A DNA stretch of 64,000 nucleotides. It comes from Escherichia phage HildyBeyeler. The notes beneath the pieces are model-generated. The model saw only the letters and a list, made by a program, of their open reading frames with translations, did no database searches and was not told the origin of the DNA. The translations under genes were made by a program, and so were the position numbers. The stretch lies in sequence record MZ501074; one strand, written 5' to 3'. Below, in pieces: positions 6,278 through 60,336 of this stretch; position 1 is the first letter of the stretch, and every line of letters starts with the position of its first letter.

Positions 6278-7740
6278 ATATCGCTGGCCTGTTCACCTGT
6301 TGAATTTTCAGTTTTATCTTTCTTAGCACGTTTAGATTGAGCTGGCTTATCCTTTTCAATAGGGATAATGAACTCAGCTTCCATTTGAGATATATCTTCC
6401 ATTGCTAGGTTGGTAGTGTTATCCATCCGCAGAGTTTCCCAGTTCATCTTAGGCATAAACTTCACGCTACCAGAAGAACGGGTCTTAACGAAGTCAAACA
6501 TAATAGCACCTTGACCATTATCAGCTTTTGCAGCATTAAGATTAGCAGCCATGTCTGCGGAATCAAGAATCCCCTTTGACATACGTGTTCTACCATCTTG
6601 ATCGATCTGGTAAGGAGCTACGCCAGCCACGTTATGTTTCTGGCAGATAGATTTGAAAGACGAGCTAACAACCATCTGTTCTTTCCAGTCATACATATCA
6701 ATGGTTTTAGAATCTGGAAGTCGGGTTTGGTTAATATAGTCAAGTAAAGCTACTGTAACCTTATCCCCATATCTAGCAACTAATTTATTTAACTCTACGT
6801 CAACTGTTGTAATAGACAGCTCAGGGTCATAAACAATAATCATAGGAGTATGTAGCTCATATCCTTCTATTAGCTTACTTTCCATATCGTAGAAATCACT
6901 CATCTTAGCCATTGTGTACTGTTTAACGAAGTTATCGAAAAGCTCTTCACCACCATTAAACATTCTAGCTCTAGTTCTGGCTAATCTCAACAGAGCTGCA
7001 CCTTCTAGAGTATTATTACGCATTGCTAATGCTGATACACCAGCTAACATGGCTAGATTACGTCTAAATACTTCATGTTCTTTCATCTCAATTGAGAAGT
7101 ATGGAGCAATATCCCCATTCAAATATTGCTGAACCTGTATGTTTGAACAGATAATGGATTTACCAGTACCACGCCAACCACCAAGCAGTAACGTTTCTGT
7201 GCGAGCTAAACCAATTTGAGCGTCGAACTCATTACAAATACCAAGAGCGATTAAATTCAGTTTGGTATCTTCTTCTCTCTGGAAAATACGCATGTTATCT
7301 GCGTTGAATACTTTCCCAGTATTCGTTACTTTCTCTTCTAATTTTAAGTGAAGGGAGGCAACTCGGTTAAGAATTTCTCCCTGATCCAGCATTGTTAAAT
7401 CTTGAAGCACGTCTGTTTCTAGAAGCTTCAGGAATAAATCCTGTGTATACTCGGCCTCTAGGACTTCAAGTGCCTGTTCCATGCTAACTTCTGGAATTTG
7501 AGTGTTAGCTAAAACGACTAGAGCTTGAGAAAGGCGGGCGTTCCTATTAGCCTCAAGCATCAGTGCGTCAATGGACGGCATTGTGTTATATTTTTTATAA
7601 TAATTCTGGACGGCTTGGTAAATTGAGGAGAAAGCGTCATTAAAATGATCTTTATGCAGTTTTGAGAATGTTTCCAATGCTATTTGCTTCTGTTCGGAAG
7701 CTAGAAGCATCTTCAACACTACAGCTTGCACGTTAAACAT
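6274..7740 (-). CDS. replicative DNA helicase, DnaB-like (488 aa)
   Basis: RecA-like core with P-loop GGWRGTGKS; adjacent and translationally coupled to the primase gene. Confidence 0.65.
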   Translation of the reverse strand: MFNVQAVVLKMLLASEQKQIALETFSKLHKDHFNDAFSSIYQAVQNYYKKYNTMPSIDALMLEANRNARLSQALVVLANTQIPEVSMEQALEVLEAEYTQDLFLKLLETDVLQDLTMLDQGEILNRVASLHLKLEEKVTNTGKVFNADNMRIFQREEDTKLNLIALGICNEFDAQIGLARTETLLLGGWRGTGKSIICSNIQVQQYLNGDIAPYFSIEMKEHEVFRRNLAMLAGVSALAMRNNTLEGAALLRLARTRARMFNGGEELFDNFVKQYTMAKMSDFYDMESKLIEGYELHTPMIIVYDPELSITTVDVELNKLVARYGDKVTVALLDYINQTRLPDSKTIDMYDWKEQMVVSSSFKSICQKHNVAGVAPYQIDQDGRTRMSKGILDSADMAANLNAAKADNGQGAIMFDFVKTRSSGSVKFMPKMNWETLRMDNTTNLAMEDISQMEAEFIIPIEKDKPAQSKRAKKDKTENSTGEQASDI

Positions 7741-8314
7741 TATTTAGCAACTCCTCTGTAAAGTTATCCGCTATATTCTGCGGTTTAACCCTCTCTATAT
7801 CTAGAGCATCTAGGGCTGCGAAATCTCCGTACAAGGCTAAAAGCAGCTTATCTCTATACCACAGAGCTTCTCCTAGAGTTTTTAGGGTTTTTCTAAATAC
7901 TTTGGAGTTTTTAGATATGGTTACTTTAAATGTGTTATTTTTTGTTACTTCTATGTTACGAATGCCTAGCTTGTTACCTATAAAGCTATTAGCGGAATTT
8001 TGAGAGGAAGTAACTTCACGTAAGTTATTCCAAGTATTATCAGTTTTAATTCTATTTTTATGATCAACCTTGTCAGGGATTTCTCCTTCCATATATAGAA
8101 AGGCCCACCTATGCGCTCCCATAGATTTTTGTATACCTGACTCTAAGGTTATCTTTATGTAAATATAGCCTGATGAATGCATATAGCCTGCAGGTTTGTT
8201 AGCGTGCTTAGCATTGAACGCAGGATTATTTTCTCTAGGTAGCCAGTAGAAATTTCCAGTATCAGGCTCATATCTTAATAATGTTTTAAGATACTGCTGG
8301 GTAATCTCCCCCAT
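7733..8314 (-). CDS. HNH homing endonuclease (193 aa)
   Basis: HNH motif VDHKNRIKTDNTWNNLR plus an AP2-like C-terminal segment. Confidence 0.8.
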   Translation of the reverse strand: MGEITQQYLKTLLRYEPDTGNFYWLPRENNPAFNAKHANKPAGYMHSSGYIYIKITLESGIQKSMGAHRWAFLYMEGEIPDKVDHKNRIKTDNTWNNLREVTSSQNSANSFIGNKLGIRNIEVTKNNTFKVTISKNSKVFRKTLKTLGEALWYRDKLLLALYGDFAALDALDIERVKPQNIADNFTEELLNNV

Positions 8315-8373
8315 TATGTAGCCTTCTAATATACAAGAAAGGAGAACCGAAGTTCTCCTTATCTGCCTTCTAA

Positions 8374-9141
8374 TTATTCAGCAGCCGCAGCTTTTGCATC
8401 CAGTTTAGCACGCTTAGCGGCACCATCATAGTCCTTAGCAACCAGACCACGACGAGACAGCATAGATTTAACACCGCGCTCAGACTTACCAGTTTTCTCA
8501 GCGATCTCAGCAACAGTCATGTTAACCAGATCCAGACCTTCTAACAGATCTTCACGAGTTTTAGCACTTGAGGTTTCCTGTACCGGCATAGCAGCGATAC
8601 GACCTTCACGAAGCAGACTCAGAGCTTTACCACGGATCTGTTTGATATTACGACCGAAGTGAGCAGCGATAGCTTCAATAGTAGCCCCAGCAACAACCTG
8701 ATTAACAAAGTCAGTTTCTTCATCCGGAGTGAAGGAACGAACAGCAGCAGTTTTTTCGGTTGGTTTAACAGAAGCGGTCATTTCCAGACTCAGGATCTTA
8801 CCCTGTACCTGTTTAGCACCGAACTGACCACCAGCCACAGCAGCAGCGATTTCAGCATAAGTATACTGACCAGCATGAGCGTTCAGGAAATCAACCAGTT
8901 CAGCTTCCTGCTCAGGAGTCCACGGGGATTTCTGTACTTCGTTAGCTTTCTGTACTTCAAAACCTTCTTTACGCAGTTTAGAGCCAACAGAGCGAGCAGT
9001 AACATCTTTGCCAGTTTCAGCAGCCAGTTCAGCGGCGATAGCAGCTACTTGTTCTTGAGAGATTACATCAACACCCAGAGCAGTGGCTTTTGCTTTCAGA
9101 GACTCGGTTACACCTTCTACGTTCCAGTTCAGTTTAGACAT
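8374..9141 (-). CDS. DNA-binding protein with three tandem HTH-like repeats (255 aa)
   Basis: Three internal repeats of the form TxAEIAxxxGxxxxxxxGKxLSL; Ala-rich. Confidence 0.5.
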   Translation of the reverse strand: MSKLNWNVEGVTESLKAKATALGVDVISQEQVAAIAAELAAETGKDVTARSVGSKLRKEGFEVQKANEVQKSPWTPEQEAELVDFLNAHAGQYTYAEIAAAVAGGQFGAKQVQGKILSLEMTASVKPTEKTAAVRSFTPDEETDFVNQVVAGATIEAIAAHFGRNIKQIRGKALSLLREGRIAAMPVQETSSAKTREDLLEGLDLVNMTVAEIAEKTGKSERGVKSMLSRRGLVAKDYDGAAKRAKLDAKAAAAE

Positions 9142-20727: not shown

Positions 20728-22554
20728 TTACTTAAGATTTAAGTGTTTTACTCTACCAAGAACTTCTTTTTGTTTCCCAGAATTGAAAGGCCTACTGCTA
20801 GGGGATCCCAAGTACCCGCAAACCCTACGTGTAACCTCTATTTCTTCAGACCCACAACTCGGACATACAAACCCACGTTCAGAGGCAACAGATTCACCCA
20901 TATACCCACAGTTGAAGCACTCATCAATTGGTATATTAACACCAATATAATGGCTACATTCTAGCCCCTTATCCACCACATACTCAAGAGCTTTGTGGAA
21001 CTTTTTCATTTGAGGTAGTTCCACAAATGATATATTACCACCATTAGCTATTTTGGTAAAATGAGCCTCGTACTCAAATTTAGTATCTGGGGCTACCTTC
21101 TCTCTTACGTCCAAATGGTGACTATTAGTGAGATAGCCTTTATCTGTTAGCCAAGAATACTCTGGGAATCTACGTTCTAGTAATTTATTAAAACGATTAC
21201 ATAGAGACTCACTAGGAGTAGCGTATAAGCTAAATCCAAGATTAGTCTCATTAGCTTTAACTTCGCAACGATTTTTTAGGTGAGTAAGAACTTCTTCTGT
21301 AAATTCAATACAATCCCTATGGGTTTGTGGTAGACCAAACATTATTTGGCACATCTCATAGACCCCAATGTATCCAAGAGATACAGAAGATCTACCCTCA
21401 AAAATAGGCCATACATACTCTTCCCCATCTAAACGCACACCAAAACCACCGTGCATATAAAGAATAGGGGCTTGTTTAGCCTTAACTTTCTTCAGTCTGT
21501 TTAAGAAGAAGTCATGCGCTTCAAAAGCCTCATCCACATATTTGTCTAGAATATCCCAGAAATCTTCAAAAACCCCATCTGCCTCAGCAGCAACCATAGG
21601 TAGATTAATAGACACTACACCTAAATTATTGCGCCCTGCAATTTCTCCGGAGGGGATAGCAGATAAAAAGCTACGACAACCCATAGGTGCTTTAAAATCA
21701 CCAGTAACAGCTACAACTTTCTCATAGCTTAAATAGTCCGGGTACATACGGGTAGCAGAACACTCAAGTGCTAGCTGTTTTATATCGTAGTTAGGATCGC
21801 CTGGATTTTTATTTAACCCTTCTTTAACTGAGAATACTAGTTTAGGGAAGATAGGGGTTGACTCAGCAGCACCTAAACCTTTAATACGGTTTTGGAGGAT
21901 GGCTTTCTGAATCATCCTTTCCTCCCACTCCTGTCCTAGCCCAAAGCCAAGCGTAACAAAAGGAGTCTGTCCATTAGAGTTAAATAATGAATTAGTTTCA
22001 TACTCTAGGGCTTGGAATGCGTCATAACACTCTTTTTCAGTGAGTTCAGTAGCATATACAGCAGCTTTCCTTTCATCCTTGAGCCAACGTAGACCACGAC
22101 CCAGGTGCTTATCATAAGACTTTCTGACATAAGGGGCTAAAACCTCATCGATACGATCAATAGAAGTGCCACCATACTGAGCACCAGATACTTGGGCAAT
22201 AATCTGAGCAGTGATTGCACATGCAGTAGTTATGGATTTAGGAGTTTCAATATTTGCATTACCAATTTTAGTACCATTCTTCAGCATGCCACCAAGGTCT
22301 ACTAAACAACAGTTAGTGTATCCCTGTGCCCTGTAATCCATATCATGGATGTGTATTTTACCTAGATTATGGGAGTCTAATAGATGTTTAGGTAATTCTT
22401 GTGCTACTAAATACTTGTTGATTTCTCCAGCTAATAAGTCTCTTTGGGTATGGAACATCTCACTAGGCTTATTAGCATTATTATGTTGTAAGTCCTTATC
22501 AGCAGTTAGAGTGAGCAGGCCTTTGCAATTCTCAATTAATTCATTCTCTGTCAT
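20728..22554 (-). CDS. nrdD: anaerobic ribonucleoside-triphosphate reductase (class III RNR), 608 aa
   Basis: C-terminal zinc ribbon CFNCG...CPSCG and glycyl-radical motif RVCGYLG. Confidence 0.9.
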   Translation of the reverse strand: MTENELIENCKGLLTLTADKDLQHNNANKPSEMFHTQRDLLAGEINKYLVAQELPKHLLDSHNLGKIHIHDMDYRAQGYTNCCLVDLGGMLKNGTKIGNANIETPKSITTACAITAQIIAQVSGAQYGGTSIDRIDEVLAPYVRKSYDKHLGRGLRWLKDERKAAVYATELTEKECYDAFQALEYETNSLFNSNGQTPFVTLGFGLGQEWEERMIQKAILQNRIKGLGAAESTPIFPKLVFSVKEGLNKNPGDPNYDIKQLALECSATRMYPDYLSYEKVVAVTGDFKAPMGCRSFLSAIPSGEIAGRNNLGVVSINLPMVAAEADGVFEDFWDILDKYVDEAFEAHDFFLNRLKKVKAKQAPILYMHGGFGVRLDGEEYVWPIFEGRSSVSLGYIGVYEMCQIMFGLPQTHRDCIEFTEEVLTHLKNRCEVKANETNLGFSLYATPSESLCNRFNKLLERRFPEYSWLTDKGYLTNSHHLDVREKVAPDTKFEYEAHFTKIANGGNISFVELPQMKKFHKALEYVVDKGLECSHYIGVNIPIDECFNCGYMGESVASERGFVCPSCGSEEIEVTRRVCGYLGSPSSRPFNSGKQKEVLGRVKHLNLK

Positions 22555-22744
22555 TGATTATTTCCTCAATAAACTTTATAGCTACTTTTGGTTCAATATT
22601 GAAGAATTCCGTAGCGCCGTCAAAATCTTTGTACTGGCAATTCTGCTCTTTAAAGTAGTTATGGGCTAATTTTTCTATTCGAACTGCACTACTATATTCT
22701 CCAATTTCAAATACTTTAATTTTTTCGGCATTACTCTTCTCCAC
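22541..22744 (-). CDS. hypothetical protein (67 aa)
   Basis: ORF directly downstream of minus-strand promoter 22760-22788. Confidence 0.4.
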   Translation of the reverse strand: MEKSNAEKIKVFEIGEYSSAVRIEKLAHNYFKEQNCQYKDFDGATEFFNIEPKVAIKFIEEIINDRE

Positions 22745-22759
22745 AGAATTTTCACACCT

Positions 22760-22788
22760 ATTATACTAAACATTATCCACTATGTCAA
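22760..22788 (-). promoter_or_regulatory. sigma70 promoter (TTGACA, 17 bp, TATAAT), divergent from the phoH promoter
   Basis: Consensus hexamers on the minus strand upstream of 22541-22744 and nrdD. Confidence 0.6.
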
Positions 22789-22925
22789 TTAAAATTTTCT
22801 TTCGCCACCTAATACTGTAATATTCCGCGTATAAATAAATGATTATCTAATACCATACATTTCCCGTTAAAAGCAAGCAAATTTTTTATTTAAATGCAAT
22901 ATCATAGGCTTATTTAAAATTGTAG

Positions 22926-23982: not shown

Positions 23983-24126
23983 GTGGCCAAAAACTAGACT
24001 GACAACACAGAAGGCCTGGGTATGAAAGTACTCGGGCCTTTTCTATCAGAAAATTTTATTTGCCAAATGACTGAGAATAAAGTAAACTATTTCCTAAATC
24101 CTGATAACTATAAAAAGGAAAGCCAA

Positions 24127-26460
24127 ATGAGCCATCGCATTGAAAAGGTAATTAAACGTGACGGTACTGTAGAAGACTTTGCTCCTGAAAAACTCAATGG
24201 TTGGGCAGAGTATGGTTGCAAAACAGTTGATGTAAGTTGGTCTGCCATTACTATGGCTGCTCAAAAAACTCTGCCTAAAGGGGTTGTAGATTCCGACACT
24301 CTGATGGATGCGTTAATTAAAGCTGCTGAAAGTCTTATCAAAGATAATCCAGCATACGACGTGCCAGCAAAGGAATTACGTCTTGCGCAGATGCGTAAAC
24401 GCCTTTATGATTCCTTTGAACCACCTTCTCTACGCTTCTTCCACGATCATATGGTTAGTGTAGGTGCATGGGAAGACATGAGTGCATGGATTACCGATGA
24501 GCAATTTGAAGCTCTGAATCAGGTTATCGACCATGATCGTGACCGTCTTTTCACTAGTGGAGGACTGAAACAATTCTTTGATAAGTATTCCCGTCGTAAC
24601 ATAGCCACCGGTGAAATTTATGAAACCCCGCAGTTTGCCTACATGGGTATGGCAATGGCGATGCTATCTCAACCTAACTGGACAATTCTCGATGCAATCG
24701 ACCTATACAACGCAATGTCACTCCACAAAATCAACGTTCCTACGCCGCCACTGGTTGGTCTGCGCTCTAGTGATCGTGGATTTGCTAGTTGTTGCCTCGT
24801 TGATTCCACTGACACATTGGATTCAATCGACACAGCCGAGCACATCGTTTTTAAAATGGTCGCAGCCAGAGCGGGAATCGGGTATCATCTTGAAAGCAGA
24901 TCAATTGCTGATCCGGTGCGAAATGGGGCATTCCCGCATTCCGGAAAACTGCCATATTATCGACACATTGACCGCTCAGTAAAGGCCAACACTCAGCAAA
25001 CTCGTGGTGGTTCTGCTACAGTGTCTTATCCATACTTTGATCCTGAAATCATTCAGTTGATGCAGGTTAAGCAACAACGTGCTACAGACGAGAATAAAAT
25101 CGATAAGATGGATTATTCTCTGAGCTTCAACAATCTTTTGTTAAAACGTTATCTTAAAAATGAAGATATTACGCTAATGTCATACTTCTATGCTCCGGAA
25201 GTTCATGAAGCGTTTTATAGTGATGACGAGGCTAAATTTGAAGAAATCTATGTGGCAGCGGAGAAACGTGTGGCATCTCTTACAAAGATCGACCACGAAG
25301 GAAAAACAGTTCCAGCAGCTCCTAAAGTCTCTGCAAAAGAAATCCTAGATACTTGGCTGCGTATCCGAATGGAAACAGGACGTATGTATGCCCACCACAT
25401 TGGGGAATCTAATCGTCACGGTAACTTCCTTGATCCGATCCGTATGACAAACCTTTGTGTTGAAATTACTCAGCCTACACGCCCGTTCCATCATATCACG
25501 GAACTGTATAAAACGAAAGAGCAGCTTGACCAAATGAAGCCGGAGGATATTGGGGAAGTATCTCTATGTAACTTAGGTGGTGTTGTACTAGGACGCATGG
25601 AATCTCTAGCTGAGTGGGAAAAAACTTGCTACATCCTCCTGAAATTCGTTGATACAATTATTGAAATTCAGGATTATCCGTTCCCAACTATGGAATATAC
25701 GGCTAAGAAACGTCGTAATGTTGGTATTGGCCTGATGAACGCAGCAGGTGCAATGGCAGCAGAAGGTCTGGCTTATGAAGGTATTGAAGCCCGTAACTGG
25801 ATTCACCGTGAGGCTGAAAAACTGTCTTACTTCCTGCATAAAGCCTCTGTACGCCTAGCTAAAGAACAGGGTGCATGTGAGTGGTTTGATCGTACTAAAC
25901 CATCTAAAGGAATTCTGGTAATCGACACATACAAGAAAACTGTTGATGAGCTGGTATCCGTAGGTCTAGAAATGGATTGGGAATCTCTGCGTGCAGATAT
26001 TCTGAAATACGGTATGCGTAACTCTGTTCTGACTGCGCAGATGCCTGGAGAAAGTTCCTCTGTACTATTGGGTGTTACCAACTCAATTGAGCCACCTCGT
26101 AGGATTGTATCTATCAAGGGTAGTGCAGTGAATAAAGTAATTGCAATTGCTCCGGGTGCAACTGATTGGGATACTCTCATGAGCTATAAACTGGCCTATG
26201 ATATTGATCGCACTGAGTGGATCAAATGGAACGCCGTTTACCAAAAATTCTTGAGCCAGTCATCAAGTTTCCAGATGTATTATGATTACTCTAAATTCGA
26301 GAATGAAATCATTCCTGGCCCAGTAGTAGTTCGTGACTTTATGACTGCGGTTAAGTATGGTATAAAGACCTGGTATTATGCTAACTTTAACACTGCGAAT
26401 GGTGGAGGAGCTGGTGAAGAGGCGGCAACAGGTTGTGCATCAGGCGGTTGTCAGTTATAA
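24127..26460 (+). CDS. nrdA: ribonucleotide reductase large subunit (class Ia), ~777 aa
   Basis: ATP-cone N-terminus (MSHRIEKVIKRDGTVEDF), catalytic core, C-terminal Cys pair; AAGGAAAG RBS before 24127. Confidence 0.9.
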   Translation: MSHRIEKVIKRDGTVEDFAPEKLNGWAEYGCKTVDVSWSAITMAAQKTLPKGVVDSDTLMDALIKAAESLIKDNPAYDVPAKELRLAQMRKRLYDSFEPPSLRFFHDHMVSVGAWEDMSAWITDEQFEALNQVIDHDRDRLFTSGGLKQFFDKYSRRNIATGEIYETPQFAYMGMAMAMLSQPNWTILDAIDLYNAMSLHKINVPTPPLVGLRSSDRGFASCCLVDSTDTLDSIDTAEHIVFKMVAARAGIGYHLESRSIADPVRNGAFPHSGKLPYYRHIDRSVKANTQQTRGGSATVSYPYFDPEIIQLMQVKQQRATDENKIDKMDYSLSFNNLLLKRYLKNEDITLMSYFYAPEVHEAFYSDDEAKFEEIYVAAEKRVASLTKIDHEGKTVPAAPKVSAKEILDTWLRIRMETGRMYAHHIGESNRHGNFLDPIRMTNLCVEITQPTRPFHHITELYKTKEQLDQMKPEDIGEVSLCNLGGVVLGRMESLAEWEKTCYILLKFVDTIIEIQDYPFPTMEYTAKKRRNVGIGLMNAAGAMAAEGLAYEGIEARNWIHREAEKLSYFLHKASVRLAKEQGACEWFDRTKPSKGILVIDTYKKTVDELVSVGLEMDWESLRADILKYGMRNSVLTAQMPGESSSVLLGVTNSIEPPRRIVSIKGSAVNKVIAIAPGATDWDTLMSYKLAYDIDRTEWIKWNAVYQKFLSQSSSFQMYYDYSKFENEIIPGPVVVRDFMTAVKYGIKTWYYANFNTANGGGAGEEAATGCASGGCQL

Positions 26461-26535: not shown

Positions 26536-26561
26536 ATCTCCATTAGTTAAGGAGATTAGTT

Positions 26562-27077
26562 TTGATAACACAAGATGAATTAAAAAGGATTCTGGAGTAT
26601 AATCCAGATGAAGGAACATTTACTTGGTTAAATAACCAGGAAGTACACAATAAAGTAAGGGGACTACCTGCTGGCTGTTTAAAACCCCACTCAGTAGATC
26701 CTAACCGAAAAGACTTAGTAATACAAATCAAGGGTAAGAAGTATCCCGCACAAAATATTGCTTTCCTGTACATGACAGGAAACTTACCTAAAGTTATGGT
26801 TGACCATATAGATGGAGATTCACTAAACTATAAGTGGGCTAATCTAAGAGAAGCAGACTGGCAGTTAAATAGTCAAAATAGAAAAACTAGTAAAAACAAT
26901 ATATTGGGTACTAAGAATATTCGGAAGAAAGGGTCTGGATTTCAAGTTAGAAAATCCATTAACGGAAAAGAATATGTGAAAACTCTCCCAACTCTAGAAG
27001 AGGCGATAGAGTATCGAGATTCTTTAATCCTCTCTATAACCAAAGATCCAACACTACTTAGAAACACAGATAAATAG
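26562..27077 (+). CDS. HNH homing endonuclease (171 aa), TTG start
   Basis: HNH motif VDHIDGDSLNYKWANLR with AP2-like C-terminus; inserted between nrdA and nrdB with its own promoter. Confidence 0.75.
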   Translation: MITQDELKRILEYNPDEGTFTWLNNQEVHNKVRGLPAGCLKPHSVDPNRKDLVIQIKGKKYPAQNIAFLYMTGNLPKVMVDHIDGDSLNYKWANLREADWQLNSQNRKTSKNNILGTKNIRKKGSGFQVRKSINGKEYVKTLPTLEEAIEYRDSLILSITKDPTLLRNTDK

Positions 27078-27085: not shown

Positions 27086-28231
27086 ATGACAACTTTACTT
27101 AACTTAAACTGGGATCATACCAATAAAGATCTATTTCTCGGTGATTCTCTTGGTATTGCAGATTATGTACGAGTAGCCCATCCAGAGCTGGAAAGGCTGG
27201 CGTTATTAGCTCGCTCTCAATTCTGGACTGAAACTGAAATCAGTCTGGAAGCAGATAAGAAACAATGGCCTAATCTCCCACGAGAAATTCAGGAAATTAC
27301 CCTCCTGAATTTAGCATGGCAGACTCAAACTGATTCCTTTATCAGTCGAGCGCCTGAAGCAGCTATTATGCCACTTGTAAGTCGTCCAGAATTGGAAGGT
27401 ATGCTAAAGCAGTGGAGCTACTTCGAAGACCTGCATAGTCGCGCCTATAGCAATATTATTCGTAATGTGCTGACTGATCCAGCAGAATTTATTGATTCTG
27501 TAACCAAAAACCAGGAAGCATTCGCACGCATCGCTGATTCTGTTGAACTGTTCGATGAACTGTATCAGTTAGGTCAGTATTTCCTCGCAGTACGCGATCA
27601 TCGTGGTGACAATACATATCCAGAAACTGAGTTCCCTGAAGTTAAACGTGAAACTCAGGCTAAACTATTAGACGCTTACTTTGCGATCTATGGTCTGGAA
27701 GCAATGCAGTTTTACGCATCCTTTGCATGTACTTTTGCTCTAGCAGAGAACGATATTCTGCAAGGTATTGCTAAGAACCTGCAATTAATCGCTAAAGATG
27801 AGGCTCTGCACACCCAGATGTCTAAAGCAATCATCCAGATTATGTTCCAGCAGTTTGACAAAGATCTGGTAGATGAAGCAGTGGCTAAAGCACCAGCACA
27901 GCTCCTGAAAACTCTGAAAACTGAAATTGAATGGGGTCATTTCATTTTCAAAGGTCGTAGTCTGATTGGCTTGAATGCAGAACTTCTAGAAGAATATCTG
28001 TACTTTGTGGGGCGTAATGCATTTATGCACATCGGTGTAGAATGGCCTAGTCATTTACCAGTAATCACTAAGAACCCCATTCCGTGGATCATGAACTGGC
28101 TGGATACCACTTCTTTACAGCCTGCTCCACAAGAAATCCAGATTGGTGCAGCCTACCGTGTAGGTCAGGTAACTGAGACCTCTACTGATACTCTGAAAGA
28201 TCTGGGTAATGAATTTGGAGATTTCTTATGA
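27086..28231 (+). CDS. nrdB: ribonucleotide reductase small subunit (381 aa)
   Basis: Di-iron ligand and ferritin-like motifs; follows nrdA. Confidence 0.85.
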   Translation: MTTLLNLNWDHTNKDLFLGDSLGIADYVRVAHPELERLALLARSQFWTETEISLEADKKQWPNLPREIQEITLLNLAWQTQTDSFISRAPEAAIMPLVSRPELEGMLKQWSYFEDLHSRAYSNIIRNVLTDPAEFIDSVTKNQEAFARIADSVELFDELYQLGQYFLAVRDHRGDNTYPETEFPEVKRETQAKLLDAYFAIYGLEAMQFYASFACTFALAENDILQGIAKNLQLIAKDEALHTQMSKAIIQIMFQQFDKDLVDEAVAKAPAQLLKTLKTEIEWGHFIFKGRSLIGLNAELLEEYLYFVGRNAFMHIGVEWPSHLPVITKNPIPWIMNWLDTTSLQPAPQEIQIGAAYRVGQVTETSTDTLKDLGNEFGDFL

Positions 28232-30524: not shown

Positions 30525-30809
30525 ATGAGAATTTATAACTCAAATTCATTAGGATTTAAACCATTGAGAAAACGTGCACAATCACCTCGTCAAATAAGAA
30601 AGGCTAATATTGGTGAACCAGAAACACGTCTTCCACCTCCTCCAGAACAACGTTTAGTTTATCTGGACGAAGAATTAGCGGAACGCGAAAGAAAAGCTCA
30701 AGAAGAGATTAAGCATAAGAAAATGTGTACTGCTCCAGCCTACTCCAAAGGGGCTTATCAATATATCTATACAGCCGAGGAGGCTAAAGATGCGGGGCGT
30801 AAAAAATGA
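30525..30809 (+). CDS. hypothetical protein (94 aa)
   Basis: GAGGAGG RBS; own promoter. Confidence 0.5.
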   Translation: MRIYNSNSLGFKPLRKRAQSPRQIRKANIGEPETRLPPPPEQRLVYLDEELAERERKAQEEIKHKKMCTAPAYSKGAYQYIYTAEEAKDAGRKK

Positions 30810-31255
30810 AGATTACTGAATTTAAAGGTACTTATAGTTTTTTATCTAACTTTTATTTATCACCAATTACTTTCGAATATCTAAATGAGATATGGCATGC
30901 TGATACTGTAGAACATGCTTTTCAGGCTATGAAATCCGACCAAAAAGATGATGTAGCTCATGTGCTGCGCTCCCTAAATGCAGGAGTTGCCAAACGTAGA
31001 GGACGTAAATTAACTCTGCGCTCTGACTGGGATAAGGTAAAAGATGATGTAATGTTAGAGCTTTTACGGTTAAAGTTTGCAATCCCTGATTTGAGGGACA
31101 AACTGTTAGCAACAAAAAATGCAACTTTGATCGAAGGAAATACCTGGGGAGATACATACTGGGGTGTTTGCCGAGGCATCGGGGATAATACTTTAGGAGT
31201 TCTTTTGATGCAGGTAAGGTCTGAAATTAAAAGAAGTTTACAGTTAATAAATTAA
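30806..31255 (+). CDS. NADAR-domain (YbiA-like) protein (149 aa)
   Basis: FLSNFY...EHAFQAMK signature of the NADAR/DUF1768 family. Confidence 0.65.
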   Translation: MKITEFKGTYSFLSNFYLSPITFEYLNEIWHADTVEHAFQAMKSDQKDDVAHVLRSLNAGVAKRRGRKLTLRSDWDKVKDDVMLELLRLKFAIPDLRDKLLATKNATLIEGNTWGDTYWGVCRGIGDNTLGVLLMQVRSEIKRSLQLIN

Positions 31256-33800: not shown

Positions 33801-34183
33801 TAATTTAAAAGCTAGTAAATCGGTAGACGAAAGCCCAAGCATCTTACCTCGCAGCAGCGGTTGAAATACGAGGTTAAATAAGACCGCTGACCATACTATA
33901 AAGTATAATCTATTGGAGATTATGTTTATTACATCAGACATTTAATCTGACACGTAAAAACAAAGCGTCGTTGATATTACCGACACAACTTCAAAGATCA
34001 ACATTTAAGTATGAAAGCTGAAAAGTTTAAAGAACTCAAACTTCTAAACTTCTAAAGCTAAAAGATGCAAAGTATTCGTTGATGATTCAAACCCTAGATC
34101 AAAGGTACATGGCTCATAAGATATGGCCTGTGGCGCCTCTAGGCTGTTTATCGGTTTACTAGTTTCACAATTTAAAAATGTAT

Positions 34184-34212
34184 TTGCTAATTTATTAAGT
34201 TATCTGTATAAT
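34184..34212 (+). promoter_or_regulatory. sigma70 promoter (TTGCTA, 17 bp, TATAAT)
   Basis: Precedes HNH gene 34243-35064. Confidence 0.65.
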
Positions 34213-34242
34213 ATATTTTTAAATTGATGAAACGAGGCTATT

Positions 34243-35064
34243 ATGGGTAAATTACAAAAACAAATACTACCATATATAGATTATATCCGAGAAATTATAG
34301 AGTATAATCCCTATACTGGTAAATTATTCTATAAGCCTAATAAATATAAGAATAAAACTTGGCATACTTTATATGCTGGGAGAGAAATATGTAGTAAGAA
34401 CTCTGATGGGTACATCAGAGTTAGTTTGCTCTTAGATAATAAACCCACAATTATTTATGGACACCGAATAGCGTGGCTCCTTCACTATGGGGAGGAACCA
34501 CCTGCTATGATTGATCATATAAATACTATACCGTGGGATAATAGAATTATTAACCTAAGAGAGACAAATTTTAAGTTAAACAGACTTAATACTAACAAAA
34601 CGGTAGGTGTAGAGCTGCTGCCAGAAGGATTTGTGTACAGCATTACATTAGGTGAAAAGTTTTTTGTATCCCCCGGCTTCCCCACTTTCGAACAAGCTAA
34701 AGTGGAAAGAGAAAAACTAGTAAATGGTTTATGTAATGCAGAAATTGGGAAGCAGACCAATATTCTAATAGACGATGTTAGAGATTTACCTGAAATGTCC
34801 ATTATTTGTCGTACAGTTATAGGTGCGCTGGAACTATCAGATGTGTTTAGTTTCACAGGATCCTATTTATTTATGGACTCAGATTTAGGAGATTCAGAGG
34901 TACAAGGAAAAGATTTATTAGATCATATACTATTATTAGGTCAAAGACCCCTAAAAGTGATTCTAGTAACATCTAATCCTGTTGACGCAGAGTACATGAG
35001 AGGTACTCTTACGTCTTATGGATACCGAGAAAATCCCAATAGATTAGAATATGATCTATTTTAA
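34243..35064 (+). CDS. HNH homing endonuclease (273 aa)
   Basis: HNH motif IDHINTIPWDNRIINLRETN; own promoter. Confidence 0.8.
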   Translation: MGKLQKQILPYIDYIREIIEYNPYTGKLFYKPNKYKNKTWHTLYAGREICSKNSDGYIRVSLLLDNKPTIIYGHRIAWLLHYGEEPPAMIDHINTIPWDNRIINLRETNFKLNRLNTNKTVGVELLPEGFVYSITLGEKFFVSPGFPTFEQAKVEREKLVNGLCNAEIGKQTNILIDDVRDLPEMSIICRTVIGALELSDVFSFTGSYLFMDSDLGDSEVQGKDLLDHILLLGQRPLKVILVTSNPVDAEYMRGTLTSYGYRENPNRLEYDLF

Positions 35065-35076: not shown

Positions 35077-35526
35077 ATGAAGGCAGCTTTGCTTTTAGTA
35101 GCTGCCCTTACCTTCAGCTTCAATAGTCATGCGACCTACGACTCAAAGCAGATTGATTGCATTGCAAAAAATATCTACTTCGAAGCACGAGGTGAGGGCA
35201 TAAAGGGAATGACGGCGATTGCACACGTTACTAAAAACCGTGTTAACTCTGGTACTTTTCCTGATTCTTACTGTAAAGTAGTATATCAGTCTAACCAGTT
35301 CTCTTGGGTATCTAAGAGACCAAAAGTTGATAAAACTGATGAGGCTTGGAAAACCGCCAAGAATTTAGCTAGAGTGATATACTACGTTGATTCACCACAA
35401 GATCCTACACATGGAGCGTTATACTTCCATAGTGGTAAAGATAAACCGCGCTGGACAAAGAAGTTTAAGAAAACAACTAAGATTGAGGGACATACATTTT
35501 ATAAGCCTGTTGTCACTAAAACTTAA
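35077..35526 (+). CDS. secreted cell-wall hydrolase, SleB/CwlJ-like (149 aa)
   Basis: Signal peptide MKAALLLVAALTFSFNSHA; NIYFEARGE...KNR block. Confidence 0.55.
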   Translation: MKAALLLVAALTFSFNSHATYDSKQIDCIAKNIYFEARGEGIKGMTAIAHVTKNRVNSGTFPDSYCKVVYQSNQFSWVSKRPKVDKTDEAWKTAKNLARVIYYVDSPQDPTHGALYFHSGKDKPRWTKKFKKTTKIEGHTFYKPVVTKT

Positions 35527-35534
35527 AAATTTAT

Positions 35535-35563
35535 TTGCTTAAATACTTAAACTTCTGTATAAT
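35535..35563 (+). promoter_or_regulatory. sigma70 promoter (TTGCTT, 17 bp, TATAAT)
   Basis: Consensus hexamers plus CTTTCATAAATTAATGAGAGG box. Confidence 0.7.
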
Positions 35564-35594
35564 ACTTTCATAAATTAATGAGAGGAAGCGAAAT

Positions 35595-36245: not shown

Positions 36246-36468
36246 ATATTAATAAATTAGAGAACAGCGGGCCGATTACGCTGAGTGCAGAATCCAAACC
36301 GGAGTGCATTGAATAGAGTCGGTGGGTTAGTTGTAAAACTAGTACACAGTGGGCGGCAATCCCGGTTAGTGGCTAGAACGTGTAAAATGGGGCGTCTGAA
36401 ACCTCTCCCCTAAACTCTTCTCTAGTTTATAAATAGTGGGGTGTGGAAATCACTTATGTAGTAACACT

Positions 36469-39019: not shown

Positions 39020-39097
39020 GGTTCTCAAGCTCATATGGTATGAGCACCCAGCTCATAACTGGAAGGTACGTAGGTTCGAATCCTCGGGGAGCCACCA
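39020..39097 (+). tRNA. tRNA-Met or Ile2 (anticodon CAU), CCA encoded
   Basis: Acceptor GGTTCTC/GGGAGCC with G-U pairs, D-stem GCTC/GAGC, anticodon loop CU-CAU-AA, TTCGAAT T-loop; T-stem imperfect. Confidence 0.6.
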
Positions 39098-40625: not shown

Positions 40626-40713
40626 GGGCGTTTATTCCGTAAGTGGTAGCGGAGGGGATTGTAAATCCCTGGTCATTGCGACTCGAGTGGTTCGACTCCA
40701 TTAACGCCCACCA
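40626..40713 (+). tRNA. tRNA-Tyr (anticodon GUA), long variable arm, CCA encoded
   Basis: Acceptor GGGCGTT/AACGCCC, anticodon arm GGGGA-UUGUAAA-TCCCT, extra arm, TTCGACT T-loop. Confidence 0.65.
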
Positions 40714-40887: not shown

Positions 40888-40962
40888 GCACCTTTAGCTG
40901 AGATGGATTAGCGCTTGCCTGAAGAGCTTGAGAGGTTGGATCGTTACCAACGGGGTGCACCA
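40888..40962 (+). tRNA. possible tRNA-Phe (anticodon GAA), CCA encoded; non-canonical T-loop
   Basis: Acceptor GCACCTT/GGGGTGC and D-stem GCTG/TAGC are clean; anticodon stem has two U-U mismatches; T-loop AUCGUUA. Confidence 0.4.
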
Positions 40963-42640: not shown

Positions 42641-42762
42641 CAAAATCTCAGTGCAGAACACGGAGCTAGCAATTCGGAAATGCTGACTCATGATAAGCTG
42701 CCTATGTACTTGCGAAGCGGTCGTGTCCAAGACTCGGACTCTTGCACTGAAAACAATCAAAC

Positions 42763-42883
42763 ATTCTAGCGTGGTTGATGGGGAAACCAGCTTGGCTAGG
42801 GCAGAAGCTCGTTCGATTCGAGTGAAAGAATGGTTCTCGTAAGTCCGCACAAGTGATAACAGGTTCGAGTCCTGTCTAGAATG
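42763..42883 (+). ncRNA. candidate structured RNA (121 nt) with tRNA-like termini
   Basis: ATTCTAG at 42763-69 pairs perfectly with CTAGAAT at 42876-82; T-arm-like ACAGG-TTCGAGT-CCTGT before the 3' strand; internal GCTCG-TTCGATT-CGAGT hairpin. Confidence 0.35.
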
Positions 42884-42897
42884 ACACTATAAAGTTT

Positions 42898-43012
42898 ACT
42901 TATTATGTAGGTTCCGATAGACCGGCGGGTCTATTCTGGCATTTAAGAGAGGTCTCGCAAACTTCTTTGTCAGCCGTGGGGTTGATAGCCCCCAGGTGGC
43001 CTACACAATAAG
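42898..43012 (+). repeat. 14-bp inverted repeat (13 of 14 pairs) enclosing about 87 nt of hairpin-rich sequence
   Basis: ACTTATTATGTAGG at 42898-911 pairs with CCTACACAATAAGT at 42999-43012; internal hairpins ATAGACC/GGTCTAT and GGGG/CCCC. Confidence 0.65.
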
Positions 43013-43032
43013 TAAATTTATGAAAAATGTAG

Positions 43033-43061
43033 TTGCTATTTAGCTTAATTCTCTGTATAAT
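43033..43061 (+). promoter_or_regulatory. sigma70 promoter (TTGCTA, 17 bp, TATAAT)
   Basis: Precedes HNH gene 43094-43669. Confidence 0.65.
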
Positions 43062-43093
43062 ATATTCTATAAAGTGAAGAGAAGGAAAGCAAA

Positions 43094-43669
43094 ATGGAAG
43101 GATTTAAACCAATACCCGAGTATCCAGAATACTTAGTATCTGAGAAGGGAGAAATATACTCCACTATCAGTAATAAATATTTAAAACCTACCATAAACGG
43201 GAGCGGCTATTACCACTTTGCAGTACGTGAAGATACTAATGAGTATAGATGGCTTCTGCTGCACAGAGTTATATGCAGGGTTTATGGTAATCTCCCCTCT
43301 TTAGATAGTGAAATGGAAGTAGATCATAATGATTGTAATAGGCTTAATATACTCCCTAGTAATTTAGTTGCCAGAGAGAAGAAAGATCATTACGATAAAA
43401 CTACACTGGAGAGAGGAAAAACTATAGGGGGCACTAGATGTATAGTCTGTAATAAGAGGATACACTCTGGTCGAGAATACTGCATAAATTGCAGTCCAGT
43501 TAAACAGACTAAATCCCCAGAGATTACCGCAGAACAGATAGAATATTGGGTATCAAAGTATTCCTGGACTAGAGCTGCAAAAGAGTTAAATTTATCTGAT
43601 AATGGTCTACGAAAACGGTATACTAAATTAACAGGTAAATCCCCAAAAGAAATTAAAAAATCAGGGTAA
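43094..43669 (+). CDS. HNH homing endonuclease (191 aa)
   Basis: HNH motif EVDHNDCNRLNILPSNL and zinc-ribbon CIVCNKRIHSGREYCINC; last 8 nt overlap the 5' end of tRNA-Pro. Confidence 0.75.
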   Translation: MEGFKPIPEYPEYLVSEKGEIYSTISNKYLKPTINGSGYYHFAVREDTNEYRWLLLHRVICRVYGNLPSLDSEMEVDHNDCNRLNILPSNLVAREKKDHYDKTTLERGKTIGGTRCIVCNKRIHSGREYCINCSPVKQTKSPEITAEQIEYWVSKYSWTRAAKELNLSDNGLRKRYTKLTGKSPKEIKKSG

Positions 43670-43739
43670 GGGCGATAAGGTACGCCACCTCGTTTGGGGC
43701 GAGGAAATCTTTAGAGTTCGAATCTCTATACCCTGACCA
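43662..43739 (+). tRNA. tRNA-Pro (anticodon UGG), CCA encoded
   Basis: Acceptor CAGGGTA/TACCCTG, D-stem GGCG/CGCC, anticodon arm CCTCG-UUUGGGG-CGAGG, T-loop TTCGAAT. Confidence 0.75.
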
Positions 43740-43745
43740 AACAAT

Positions 43746-43821
43746 TGCGGGTGGGAGGCATAGAGTTCTTCTTAGTCTCATAAGCTAAGTAAGTCCAGGG
43801 CAGTACTGGAACCCGCTACCA
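43746..43821 (+). tRNA. tRNA with anticodon CAU (Met/fMet/Ile2-type), non-canonical T-loop, CCA encoded
   Basis: Anticodon arm TTAGT-CUCAUAA-GCTAA, T-arm TCCAG-GGCAGTA-CTGGA, acceptor 6 bp with a U1-U72 mismatch. Confidence 0.45.
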
Positions 43822-43839
43822 ATTTCAAGAAAAACGCAG

Positions 43840-43868
43840 TTGCTTAATGCTTAATTTCTTGTTATAAT
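43840..43868 (+). promoter_or_regulatory. sigma70 promoter (TTGCTT, 17 bp, TATAAT)
   Basis: Hexamers plus ATTTATATAAATTGATG box; followed by about 330 nt with no ORF. Confidence 0.65.
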
Positions 43869-44204
43869 ATTTATATAAATTGATGCGAAAATAGCTGCCT
43901 AGATACCAGGTGTATGACGTCTACACTAGCAGAGCTACCGAAAAAGAGATCCCCAGGATAAACGTCGTAGCAAAATTAGTCTGGTATCCATCAATTTAGT
44001 TCACTAAGGTATTAGCTCGACCTAGGACTGGCTGCCAAAAAGCACGATCCCTACGATTCGGGAGAAGTTCTAGATTAGTCCACTAGATTCAGCGGCAACT
44101 GAATAGTGTATTGGGTTTGCGAGATGACGCAGTTCCTTCCGCTCGAAGCGAAGGTGCTGTAGTTACGCCGAGCTAATAGCCTTAGTAAACTAGAAGGAAT
44201 ATCT

Positions 44205-44479: not shown

Positions 44480-44558
44480 GGGGGATGGGTCTGCTGGGAG
44501 TGGACACCTCGCTTGCACCGAGGACATCAGAACGATTCGAATTCGTTATCCTCCACCA
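44480..44558 (+). tRNA. tRNA-Ala (anticodon UGC), CCA encoded
   Basis: Acceptor GGGGGAT/ATCCTCC with G3-U70, anticodon arm CCTCG-CUUGCAC-CGAGG, T-loop TTCGAAT. Confidence 0.7.
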
Positions 44559-46765: not shown

Positions 46766-46773
46766 CGGGTTCT

Positions 46774-46860
46774 GCTGGGTTGGCAGAATGGTTGAATGCA
46801 CCTGATTTGTAATCAGGAGGAGTAATCCCGTTGCAGGTTCGAATCCTGTGCCCAGCACCA
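46774..46860 (+). tRNA. tRNA with anticodon UGU (Thr-type) but a long variable arm, CCA encoded
   Basis: Acceptor GCTGGGT/GCCCAGC, 3-bp D-stem, anticodon arm CCTGA-UUUGUAA-TCAGG, 15-nt extra arm with GTAA loop, T-arm GCAGG-TTCGAAT-CCTGT, A73. Confidence 0.55.
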
Positions 46861-46874
46861 ATTTAAGGACTATT

Positions 46875-47042
46875 ATGTTTAAACTGTTAGTAGTTATCTG
46901 GTATAGTCAATCAAATAGAGCGAATACCTCCCACGTTATAGACTTTACTACTAAAAATGAAGCTGAAAAAGCATATGCTAATTTAATAGAACGCAATAAA
47001 GAATCTCGTAGTATAGTTTATGAAGTGACTAAACTTTATTAA
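46875..47042 (+). CDS. hypothetical small membrane protein (~55 aa)
   Basis: AAGGA RBS before the ATG at 46875; the track ORF began inside the preceding tRNA. Confidence 0.45.
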   Translation: MFKLLVVIWYSQSNRANTSHVIDFTTKNEAEKAYANLIERNKESRSIVYEVTKLY

Positions 47043-50504: not shown

Positions 50505-50614
50505 AGAACTCGCGTAGGACCGAGTTGCGTCACCTGCAACTGTTACGGATAAGGGAGTCGTGCCCCTTAGTGCGGTAAGTGGTGAGTTGGTCGCTGACCC
50601 TAACTGGAGATGAT

Positions 50615-50959
50615 ATGACTATATTACTAATTCTTGTTACTACCTGGTTTTTAATCGGTGCTGGATATGCAATAGCTATTATTAGACATTTGGATGAACA
50701 TTCTGCTGAATGGTTTGTTAAATATCTACGTATAGACAACAAGGATCACGAGTTTAAAGATGAAAAGCAGAAAAAAGCAGTTGAAGAAATGACAGGCGAA
50801 GAATGTTTATTCTATATGCGTGCAATAGGATTCTTAGGATTATTTAGTGCTGGCCCACTAGGTTTTACCATAGCTCCTTATAAAGAAACAGTAGACGATA
50901 TTAAGTTATGGAGAAATGCAGGGGTACTACGCAAAGCTAGAGAAACTAATATTACATAA
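50615..50959 (+). CDS. hypothetical membrane protein (~114 aa)
   Basis: GGAGA RBS before the ATG at 50615; two predicted TM helices. Confidence 0.45.
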   Translation: MTILLILVTTWFLIGAGYAIAIIRHLDEHSAEWFVKYLRIDNKDHEFKDEKQKKAVEEMTGEECLFYMRAIGFLGLFSAGPLGFTIAPYKETVDDIKLWRNAGVLRKARETNIT

Positions 50960-55673: not shown

Positions 55674-56081
55674 ATGTCTGATCGTTTCTATACTCAAATG
55701 GCGGAACATTATAACATGGCTCCATATGAGTTGAACATCGCATTACGTGACCTCGATTCACCAGAGCGTAAAAAACTTGAGAAGAAGGCAGGAACTACTA
55801 TGTCTAAAGGCAAAAAGTTAACTCGTCTTGATCTTAATAAAATTTTAACTGAACTTTTGGGTACTGATATTGAAGGTGCTAAATTACCGCTTCTTGTACT
55901 AGAGACTATGATTAAAAAGGTCAAAAATAAAGAATATAAGAAGGTAGAAGTCCCAGAAGGCAGATTAAAGGCTCCTTATCAGGAAGCATTAACCGAGTGT
56001 TTGGGTGTAAATCTTGATCTGAGCACCGCAACCGTAAAAACTATGAAAAACTTCTTAGAGGCCATTAATAACTATGAGTAA
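55674..56081 (+). CDS. hypothetical protein (135 aa)
   Basis: Promoter 55612-55640 and GAGAGG RBS. Confidence 0.55.
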   Translation: MSDRFYTQMAEHYNMAPYELNIALRDLDSPERKKLEKKAGTTMSKGKKLTRLDLNKILTELLGTDIEGAKLPLLVLETMIKKVKNKEYKKVEVPEGRLKAPYQEALTECLGVNLDLSTATVKTMKNFLEAINNYE

Positions 56082-56403: not shown

Positions 56404-56405
56404 AC

Positions 56406-56869: not shown

Positions 56870-56873
56870 TTAA

Positions 56874-57119: not shown

Positions 57120-57121
57120 TT

Positions 57122-58850: not shown

Positions 58851-58965
58851 GTATATAGCTGGGGCTATAATTAAACGAGTCATACAAGCAGTAGCAATAC
58901 TTATAATCATTTGTATTGCTATTGGTACAGGACTAGGCATTTTAATTAAAAGTTTTATTTGCTAA
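58843..58965 (+). CDS. small hydrophobic peptide (40 aa)
   Basis: ATG overlaps the upstream stop; predicted single TM helix; 3' end overlaps the -35 of promoter 58959-58987. Confidence 0.3.
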   Translation: MSKYIAGAIIKRVIQAVAILIIICIAIGTGLGILIKSFIC

Positions 58966-58987
58966 AATGCCTAAGTTTCTGTATAAT
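58959..58987 (+). promoter_or_regulatory. sigma70 promoter (TTGCTA, 17 bp, TATAAT)
   Basis: Hexamers plus TACTTTATAAATTGATGAGAGGG box. Confidence 0.7.
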
Positions 58988-59017
58988 TACTTTATAAATT
59001 GATGAGAGGGAAACAAA

Positions 59018-59449: not shown

Positions 59450-59466
59450 GTAATTAAAAAATTCAG

Positions 59467-59495
59467 TTGCTTCAAGCCTTAAAATTCTGTATAAT
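59467..59495 (+). promoter_or_regulatory. sigma70 promoter (TTGCTT, 17 bp, TATAAT)
   Basis: Hexamers plus AGTTCATAAATTAATGAGAGAGG box. Confidence 0.7.
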
Positions 59496-59527
59496 AAGTT
59501 CATAAATTAATGAGAGAGGAAATTCTA

Positions 59528-59806
59528 ATGGAAAACATGACTAAAGACTTCGACGCCTCTAACCTTACCAAGACTGAAATGGCCAATGTATTAGCAATTC
59601 TCCTCGACATGCAAGGATTTGAGGGGCAACTGATGAAAATGTCTATTCCGGCGATGAAGAAGATGTATGATTCTCTTAACAAGAACGCCATGGCCTTTAA
59701 CTTAGCAAAACAAGAGGCACGCTTTGCTAAGGAGCACCAAGCAGTGGCAGAACGCCGAGCAGCTAGCTTTGAGCGTGAAGTTAAGCAATTAAAGAAAAAA
59801 TGCTAA
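59528..59806 (+). CDS. hypothetical protein (~92 aa)
   Basis: GAGAGAGGA RBS before the ATG at 59528; the track start at 59510 lies inside the conserved promoter box. Confidence 0.5.
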   Translation: MENMTKDFDASNLTKTEMANVLAILLDMQGFEGQLMKMSIPAMKKMYDSLNKNAMAFNLAKQEARFAKEHQAVAERRAASFEREVKQLKKKC

Positions 59807-60336
59807 CACAAGAAAGATTAAAAGAGCTATTTGAATACCGCCCGGAAACGGGCGAGTTTATTAGATTAGTAAGTATAGGTAATCAAAAAGCTGGTAGTAC
59901 TGCTGGCTGTCTAAGAAAGACTGGGTATATAGAAATAAGAGTAGATAAAGTAGGCTACAAAGCACATCGACTAGCCTTCCTCTATATGGAAGGTTATATT
60001 CCCGAAGTAATAGACCACGTAAATCGTATACGGAGTGATAATAGGTGGGCTAACCTTAGAGAATCTAATAACCAAGAAAATTCTAGAAATAGAACAGCAA
60101 GGAGCAAATCATGGTATTTGGGAATCTTTTGGCATAAACAAAAGCAAAAATGGGAAGTAAGGGTTGTAGATTCGTACAAAAAGTTAGTGCATGGTGGGTA
60201 TTTTGATTTTCTAGATCTAGAATTAGCGGTTCAAAGAGCTAATGAACTACGTTTAGAACTACATGGGCCTAACGCTGTTATAGAAACTTTTGATCATACA
60301 AAACCCTTACCTACTTTAGAGGAATTAAATAAATGA
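59800..60336 (+). CDS. HNH homing endonuclease (178 aa)
   Basis: HNH motif IDHVNRIRSDNRWANLR and AP2-like GIFWHKQKQKWEVRV. Confidence 0.8.
   Translation: MLTQERLKELFEYRPETGEFIRLVSIGNQKAGSTAGCLRKTGYIEIRVDKVGYKAHRLAFLYMEGYIPEVIDHVNRIRSDNRWANLRESNNQENSRNRTARSKSWYLGIFWHKQKQKWEVRVVDSYKKLVHGGYFDFLDLELAVQRANELRLELHGPNAVIETFDHTKPLPTLEELNK

Follow-up and report, generated by a model that had tools for sequence, protein, structure and literature searches.

Five probable homing endonuclease genes of the HNH_3/I-HmuI group in a T5-like phage genome, two of them adjoining strongly diverged alleles

The stretch of DNA analysed here, referred to as the window, comprises 64,000 nucleotides (nt) of Escherichia phage HildyBeyeler (sequence record MZ501074). 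It very probably carries five free-standing homing endonuclease genes of the HNH_3/I-HmuI group, i.e. of the kind known in T5-like phages as the "F-Tfl" enzymes. The five open reading frames (ORFs) are all present where the initial annotation had placed HNH homing endonuclease genes, and are numbered as follows:

Gene 1, 7733-8314, minus strand: 193 amino acids (aa); HNH_3 with AP2-like tail type; Pfam HNH_3 E = 5.5e-14, phrog_99 E = 1e-47.
Gene 2, 26562-27077, plus strand: 171 aa; F-TflVIII-like; TTG start codon 7 nt after AAGGAG; Pfam HNH_3 E = 1e-7.
Gene 3, 34243-35064, plus strand: 273 aa; HNH part (residues ~1-168) followed by a cREC_REC domain (~170-273); Pfam HNH_3 E = 5.4e-11, cREC_REC E = 1.3e-12.
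Gene 4, 43094-43669, plus strand: 191 aa; hegB/F-TflIII type; Pfam NUMOD4 E = 6.4e-7, HNH_3 E = 1.6e-6.
Gene 5, 59800-60336, plus strand: 178 aa; HNH_3 with AP2-like tail.

The assignment of these five ORFs as HNH genes (His-Me finger, HNH_3/I-HmuI group) is well supported by their sequences, and a nicking activity is predicted for their products. All five pass the curated cutoff of 24.8 bits of Pfam HNH_3 (PF13392), with scores of 28.1-54.4 bits (E 1.6e-6 to 9.6e-15). In PHROG, they fall into two HNH endonuclease families, phrog_99 for genes 1, 2, 3 and 5 and phrog_59 for gene 4. Each ORF is full length, with no frameshift or internal stop. Alignment of the five proteins shows D84, H85, N97 and L98-R99-E100 to be invariant, together with further N residues, i.e. 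the beta-beta-alpha-metal motif is kept. The core AFLYM.G..P...DH......(D)N.W.NLRE is common to genes 1, 2 and 5, which identifies the three genes said in the initial annotation to share an FLYM core, while gene 3 has a more distant version of it, AWLLHYG..P..IDH. In genes 1, 2, 3 and 5, the HNH catalytic core (D-H ... N-L-R-E ... N) is preceded by a DNA-binding N-terminal part and followed by a putative AP2-like tail. The layout of gene 4 differs, with NUMOD4, HNH_3, a Cys-rich region and a helix-turn-helix (HTH)-like tail. A group of HNH_3 nucleases with modules of the NUMOD, HTH or AP2 kind has been described (PMC5714182).

I-HmuI of Bacillus phage SPO1 (PDB 1U3E), after which the group is named, is an HNH nicking enzyme. 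Gene 4 matches it in sequence (E = 4e-4), and similarity to its fold was found. I-HmuI differs from the window's genes in two respects: it is encoded in a group I intron, whereas the five genes described here are free-standing, and its C-terminal DNA-binding part is not of the type found in the four genes with an AP2-like tail. When the 535 six-frame ORFs of the window were all searched with a hidden Markov model built from the five proteins, those five only were retrieved, and no sixth HNH ORF of the same type was thus found in the window. Window-specific and larger unexplained ORFs were also considered as further nuclease genes and rejected, the domains they contain being NADAR, Band_7, Toprim, metallophosphatase, glycyl-radical and RNase H.

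The genomic context in which the five genes are found could be defined by comparison with close relatives. A 24-kb stretch of the window matched 658 phage records. Salmonella phage Tennessee (OZ075147.1) ranks first, with 98.3% identity, and numerous T5-like phages of Escherichia and Salmonella (genus Tequintavirus) come next. On the strength of these matches, the window is part of a T5-like (Tequintavirus) phage genome about 98% identical to Tennessee. Gene order is common to the two phages throughout: polymerase, helicases, ligase, nrdD, PhoH, nrdA, nrdB, DHFR, thymidylate synthase, RNase H, tRNA cluster and lysis genes. Against this conserved background, each HNH ORF with ~600 nt of flank per side was searched against 50,697 phage records, and the share of related records (roughly 340-440 per gene) that have the gene at its locus was only 2-17%. 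Comparison with relatives lacking the inserts, the check that the initial annotation had named, also allowed the junctions of all five to be mapped and resolved to a single base, the flanks being highly similar between phages. Occupancy is patchy, as it is for homing endonuclease genes. Per gene, the results are:

Gene 1: present at its locus in 10 of 441 related records, Tennessee included; insert 7740-8372 (633 nt) in place of 88 nt of D5/helicase intergenic DNA, as seen in Lindwurm; neighbours are the D5 gene (8374-9141) and the helicase gene (6274-7740).
Gene 2: 73 of 442 records; insert 26538-27060 (523 nt) in place of the 4 nt that immediately follow the TATAAT box preceding nrdB, by comparison with Tennessee and Lindwurm.
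Gene 3: 25 of 440 records; substituted DNA 34246-35014 (769 nt) in place of 263 nt, beginning right after a shared ATG.
Gene 4: 11 of 444 records; substituted DNA 43107-43732 (626 nt) in place of 261 nt, running from ~12 nt beyond a shared ATG up to the tRNA's CTGACCA end.
Gene 5: 56 of 336 records; insert 59789-60331 (543 nt) in place of a 53-codon ORF (177 nt).

Genes 1 and 2 are thus intergenic inserts, genes 4 and 5 replace small ORFs, and gene 3 does not stand alone but forms an in-frame fusion with a resident gene. All are discrete inserts between conserved flanks and none lies in an intron or intein. Together, patchy presence at the same locus and sharp inserts are the standard signature of free-standing homing endonuclease genes. 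Tennessee, at 98% identity, has gene 1 but lacks genes 2-5. Its genome contains four HNH genes of its own (one between helicase and primase, L003 3042-3572; three more at L001 25715-26197, 40148-40645 and 46109-46636), and their sites are empty in the window (6274-6277, 36256-36432, 50589-50624 and 56067-56077). The two phages therefore have nearly complementary sets of nuclease genes. Homing endonucleases have been named as the main source of differences among T5-like genomes (PMC10644984; PMC12639943), and nine of them have been credited to T5 (PMC3326045).

Gene 2 lies between nrdA (24022-26460) and nrdB (27086-28231), and is the gene that had been noticed between the two in the initial annotation. 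This gap is known as an insertion hotspot for homing endonuclease genes, both in T5-like and in T-even phages (PMC3326045). It is occupied, as by gene 2, by F-TflVIII or P-TflVIII in T5-like phages and by MobE in T-even phages, MobE being of another HNH subgroup and another phage family than gene 2, and in other T5-like phages the gap holds unrelated HNH genes. A named counterpart is F-TflVIII of DT57C, annotated as "HNH nicking homing endonuclease F-TflVIII", to which gene 2 is 93% identical at the nucleotide level and which sits in the same gap.

Gene 3 is an in-frame fusion of an HNH nuclease with a cREC_REC (cyclic-phosphate processing receiver) domain, the latter encoded at window positions 34750-35064. 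In ~415 of 440 relatives, Tennessee included, cREC_REC is a free-standing protein of 105 aa that starts at the same ATG. The fused domain is 51% identical to Tennessee's free-standing copy, while the flanks are 95-99% identical. Across relatives, the cREC allele is bimodal, with at least 90% identity in 27 records and ~50% in 417, and 1 of 445 is intermediate (60-80%). The fusion ORF is intact in JLBYU43, with the same 273 codons at 90% nucleotide identity, and its HNH and cREC parts have ratios of nonsynonymous to synonymous substitution rates (dN/dS) of 0.07 and 0.23, respectively. Purifying selection thus acts on the fusion ORF. The possibility that the length of gene 3 reflects a missed stop or a sequencing error was rejected because the ORF is intact in JLBYU43 with low dN/dS and the cassette is found in 25 records.

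Gene 4 ends within a tRNA gene. Its surroundings include the following elements:

tRNA-Pro(UGG), 43662-43739, plus strand: detected by ARAGORN; variant allele linked to gene 4.
Promoter-like element TTGCTA-17-TATAAT, 43033-43061, plus strand: 33 nt upstream of gene 4; 10 of 12 matches in a consensus scan.

The gene 4 sequence ends in TCA GGG TAA, with the TAA at 43667-43669, and its last 8 nt are the first 8 nt of tRNA-Pro, so that gene 4 contains the 7-nt 5' acceptor strand CAGGGTA and position 8 of the tRNA. The overlap with the 5' acceptor strand reported in the initial annotation was therefore recovered, here with ARAGORN and a targeted Rfam scan. Two wide Rfam scans had missed this tRNA, losses that are due to speed filters. 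In the targeted scan of 43645-43755 (111 nt), the Rfam tRNA model (RF00005) gives 43.4 bits (E = 1.2e-8), the gathering score being 29, with all stem pairs standard, and the pseudo-tRNA explanation that the misses had raised is rejected by this score. The minimum-energy fold is a cloverleaf of -28.3 kcal/mol. With ARAGORN, Rfam and the fold in agreement, gene 4 overlaps a real tRNA gene. The tRNA has its oddities, namely an A at position 8 and a 7-nt variable loop, and the tRNA-Pro of Tennessee scores higher with the Rfam tRNA model (62.7 bits). No second tRNA-Pro was found in the window when one was looked for.

What was not recognised at first is that this tRNA-Pro is unlike that of most close relatives. 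It is identical in phage 5 and GEC_vB_N7, but matches the tRNA-Pro of Tennessee/Lindwurm, or that of T5, at only 42 of ~78 positions, the Tennessee/Lindwurm and T5 alleles also differing from one another. Similarly, when T5 and phage 5 are compared, one with and one without the nuclease gene concerned, the tRNAs that adjoin such genes share 54-70% identity, compared with 99-100% for tRNA-fMet and tRNA-Asp. From these comparisons, the tRNA-Pro of the window is a diverged allele travelling with gene 4. Salmonella phage NR01 (L010 1501-1592) has kept the variant tRNA-Pro and has a deletion of ~1 kb, equivalent to window positions 42652-43653, through which the promoter and almost the whole F-TflIII gene have been lost. 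This looks like loss of the nuclease gene after fixation of the linked allele, i.e. the decay stage of the homing cycle.

Gene 4 and its tRNA-Pro have close counterparts in public records. Over 652 nt, the two together share 96.6% identity with hegB/F-TflIII of Salmonella phage 5. In that record (AJ604531.1, "Bacteriophage 5 tRNA gene region"), hegB is annotated as "H-N-H endonuclease F-TflIII" and the overlap with tRNA-Pro is also 8 nt. Promoter P13a and a ribosome-binding site are annotated shortly ahead of hegB, at positions that correspond to those of the promoter-like site and the ribosome-binding site of gene 4. The promoter-like site at 43033-43061 is at the position of P13a as annotated both in AJ604531.1 and in the T5 record AY543070.1. 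Judged by this match, gene 4 with tRNA-Pro is the already annotated hegB/F-TflIII cassette. Copies of gene 4 are 93-97% identical and occur in few phages. In T5 itself, hegC/F-TflI is 40% identical to gene 4 over the full length, has the same NUMOD4-HNH-Cys-HTH layout and overlaps tRNA-Ser2 by 14 nt, and hegD/F-TflII overlaps tRNA-Gln2, flagged as a pseudogene, by 23 nt (F-TflI and F-TflII: Akulenko et al. 2004, as reported in PMC2330249 and PMC3326045). Both lie in the tRNA cluster, at loci and with partner tRNAs (Ser2 and Gln2 rather than Pro) that differ from those of gene 4, and both are absent from the window. T5.069, a T5orf172/MUG113 nuclease-type ORF of T5, overlaps tRNA-Asn by 24 nt. 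A more distant parallel is SegB of T4, encoded in a phage tRNA cluster by a gene that is co-transcribed with the tRNAs and overlaps tRNA-Arg, and which drives preferential inheritance of the tRNA region (PMC2330249). SegB belongs to the unrelated GIY-YIG catalytic family and to another phage family. Maturation of tRNA-Arg is proposed to cut the segB mRNA after the last sense codon, ahead of the stop codon, and thereby to lower expression, and lower expression through tRNA processing has likewise been proposed for F-TflI/II/IV of T5 (PMC2330249).

How the five genes might spread and be expressed can be proposed by analogy with I-HmuI, the characterised F-Tfl enzymes and T4 SegB and MobE. In a mixed infection, each enzyme would nick or cut the related phage's nuclease-free allele close to where the gene is inserted, and repair templated by the genome that has the nuclease gene would then copy this gene and adjacent DNA. 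Genes 2, 3 and 4 appear to have been placed directly behind resident promoters, and genes 3 and 4 would also reuse the resident ribosome-binding site and start codon. Through such reuse of resident signals, genes 2, 3 and 4 would be expressed together with their neighbours. Genes 3 and 4 are proposed to have arrived with a strongly diverged copy of the adjacent gene, the cREC_REC domain and tRNA-Pro, respectively, and these diverged copies are most simply read as target alleles that would be immune to cleavage. For gene 4, a putative shared transcript from the P13a-like promoter would be cut by RNase P before C43662, removing the S-G codons and the stop codon from the nuclease message. The cut message would be a non-stop one, and processing would thus reduce rather than enable nuclease synthesis. 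Maturation of the tRNA and synthesis of the full-length nuclease would be mutually exclusive on a given transcript, and nuclease levels would be kept low.

It may be that the cassettes go further and overwrite their resident neighbour with their own diverged, presumably immune copy. Gene 4 would then swap in a tRNA-Pro that is maybe less active, and gene 3 would take over the start codon of cREC_REC and make a single polypeptide with it. We put this forward tentatively and, on balance, consider it unlikely.

Several points weigh against parts of the interpretation given above. Firstly, genes 3, 4 and 5 have taken the place of resident sequence and are not clean insertions, and ordinary recombination of divergent cassettes could also yield their pattern. 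The homing target sites are putative ones, taken from the insertion boundaries alone. Secondly, the AP2-like tail is putative, its support from sequence being weak: Pfam AP2 (PF00847) is matched by gene 5 only and below cutoff (E = 1.3e-3), and a sequence profile of nine tails retrieved no AP2 structure from PDB. The model of the tail is of medium confidence (predicted local distance difference test score of 55-75 in the tail). Among the approaches to the tail, fold comparison is the one that gave support, the AP2 matches in Foldseek being weak. Thirdly, notes in GenBank state that the tRNA-Pro of T5 can be converted to an amber suppressor by an anticodon change while that of phage 5 cannot, and the activity of the variant tRNA-Pro is uncertain as a result. 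Finally, the coupling of nuclease expression to tRNA processing suggested in the initial annotation, with a common transcript for gene 4 and the tRNA and a limit set by RNase P on expression, is reasonable by analogy and putative in this phage.

The explanation that competes best concerns the tRNA overlap, and holds that the 8 nt have no regulatory role and are a by-product of the tight packing of the T5 tRNA region and of the cassette boundary, the ORF simply reading on to the first stop, which happens to be inside the tRNA. Ordinary small ORFs in the tRNA region of T5 indeed end 0-15 nt before the next tRNA, and one of them, T5.057, overlaps tRNA-Met by 6 nt. Moreover, F-TflI/III are conserved up to their ...LTGKSPK end but not in the residues encoded beyond it, and the lengths of the overlaps vary (8, 14 and 23 nt). 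However, in the tRNA regions of T5 and phage 5, all four nuclease-type ORFs overlap the next tRNA compared with one of ~8 other ORFs that precede a tRNA, although the nuclease genes are paralogous and thus not independent cases, and the unrelated GIY-YIG gene segB of T4 has the same arrangement with tRNA-Arg (PMC2330249). With evidence of this kind on either side, we regard a by-product without regulatory role as less likely than not.

A second alternative is that some of the five genes are inactive, late-cycle remnants that are no longer mobile. The TTG start of gene 2, the fusion of gene 3 to another domain, the few phages in which the 93-97% identical copies of gene 4 occur, and the state of NR01, in which gene 4 could be deleted while tRNA-Pro stayed, would all fit with such remnants. 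But the D-H / N catalytic residues are kept in all five, the ORFs are uninterrupted, and the HNH part of gene 3 has the low dN/dS reported above, all of which make this explanation improbable. Thirdly, the genes could be domesticated phage functions, e.g. the maker of the site-specific nicks of T5 or a packaging helper, rather than selfish elements, as might be suggested by I-HmuI-like HNH_3 enzymes, and F-Tfl enzymes as annotated, being nickases, by the specific nicks carried by T5-like genomes (PMC10644984) and by codon-level purifying selection on gene 3; but each gene is absent at its locus from 83-98% of closely related viable phages and Tennessee, 98% identical, has a largely different HNH set, a dispensability not expected of a conserved function, so that we regard domestication as very improbable.

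A number of further features of the window may be recorded. A promoter-like element of ~50-80 nt recurs in many intergenic positions, both in the window (34159-34238, 35518-35594, 43009-43096 and 43830-43888) and in Tennessee, genes 3 and 4 each starting just downstream of a copy of it. Downstream of tRNA-Pro, a tRNA-fMet follows directly in T5, phage 5, Lindwurm and GEC_vB_N7. This initiator tRNA was expected but could not be detected in the window by ARAGORN or Rfam. Whereas phage 5 has a normal tRNA-fMet there, the window (43746-43830), like Tennessee, has a degenerate, diverged sequence with TGCGGGT...ACCCGC ends and a CAU-containing arm that is not recognised by either program.

Of the other tRNAs, tRNA-Thr(UGU) at 46774-46860 (Rfam 58.9 bits) has an extended variable region and a length of 84-87 nt. 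It and ~180 nt of downstream sequence (46769-47039, including a small ORF) stand in place of Tennessee's 72-nt tRNA-Thr, a swap of tRNA allele without an adjoining nuclease gene. Two tRNAs are found by Rfam and not listed by ARAGORN (39020-39094 and 40888-40959); conversely, tRNA-Tyr (40626-40713) and tRNA-Ala (44480-44558) of ARAGORN are absent from the wide Rfam scan, possibly a filter loss as for tRNA-Pro. Window positions 20734-22837, around nrdD (anaerobic ribonucleotide reductase; ORF 20728-22554), have no megablast-level similarity to the nrdD of Tennessee while the DNA on both sides is 98% identical, which we read as a mosaic replacement of the nrdD region. Finally, an ORF of 149 aa with a NADAR domain (30806-31255, in region 30764-31254) has no counterpart in Tennessee, where only 46 nt are found at this position.

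The cassettes, the tRNA overlap and its suggested link to processing are already known from public records and papers. The main use of these results is therefore correct annotation. The initial annotation had overlooked the linkage of the tRNA-Pro allele to gene 4, the cREC_REC fusion in gene 3, the identity of gene 4 as hegB/F-TflIII and the likeness of gene 2 to F-TflVIII, and the finding of diverged alleles linked to nuclease genes and of a fusion between HNH and cREC adds modestly to what was known. If the cassettes do overwrite their neighbours, homing would drive allele replacement of tRNA and accessory genes in these phages, and HNH-cREC would be a stable chimera of a nuclease and a host gene. 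With its mapped junctions and its pairing with Tennessee, the phage would provide a convenient natural system in which to measure homing and the cost of replacing a tRNA allele.

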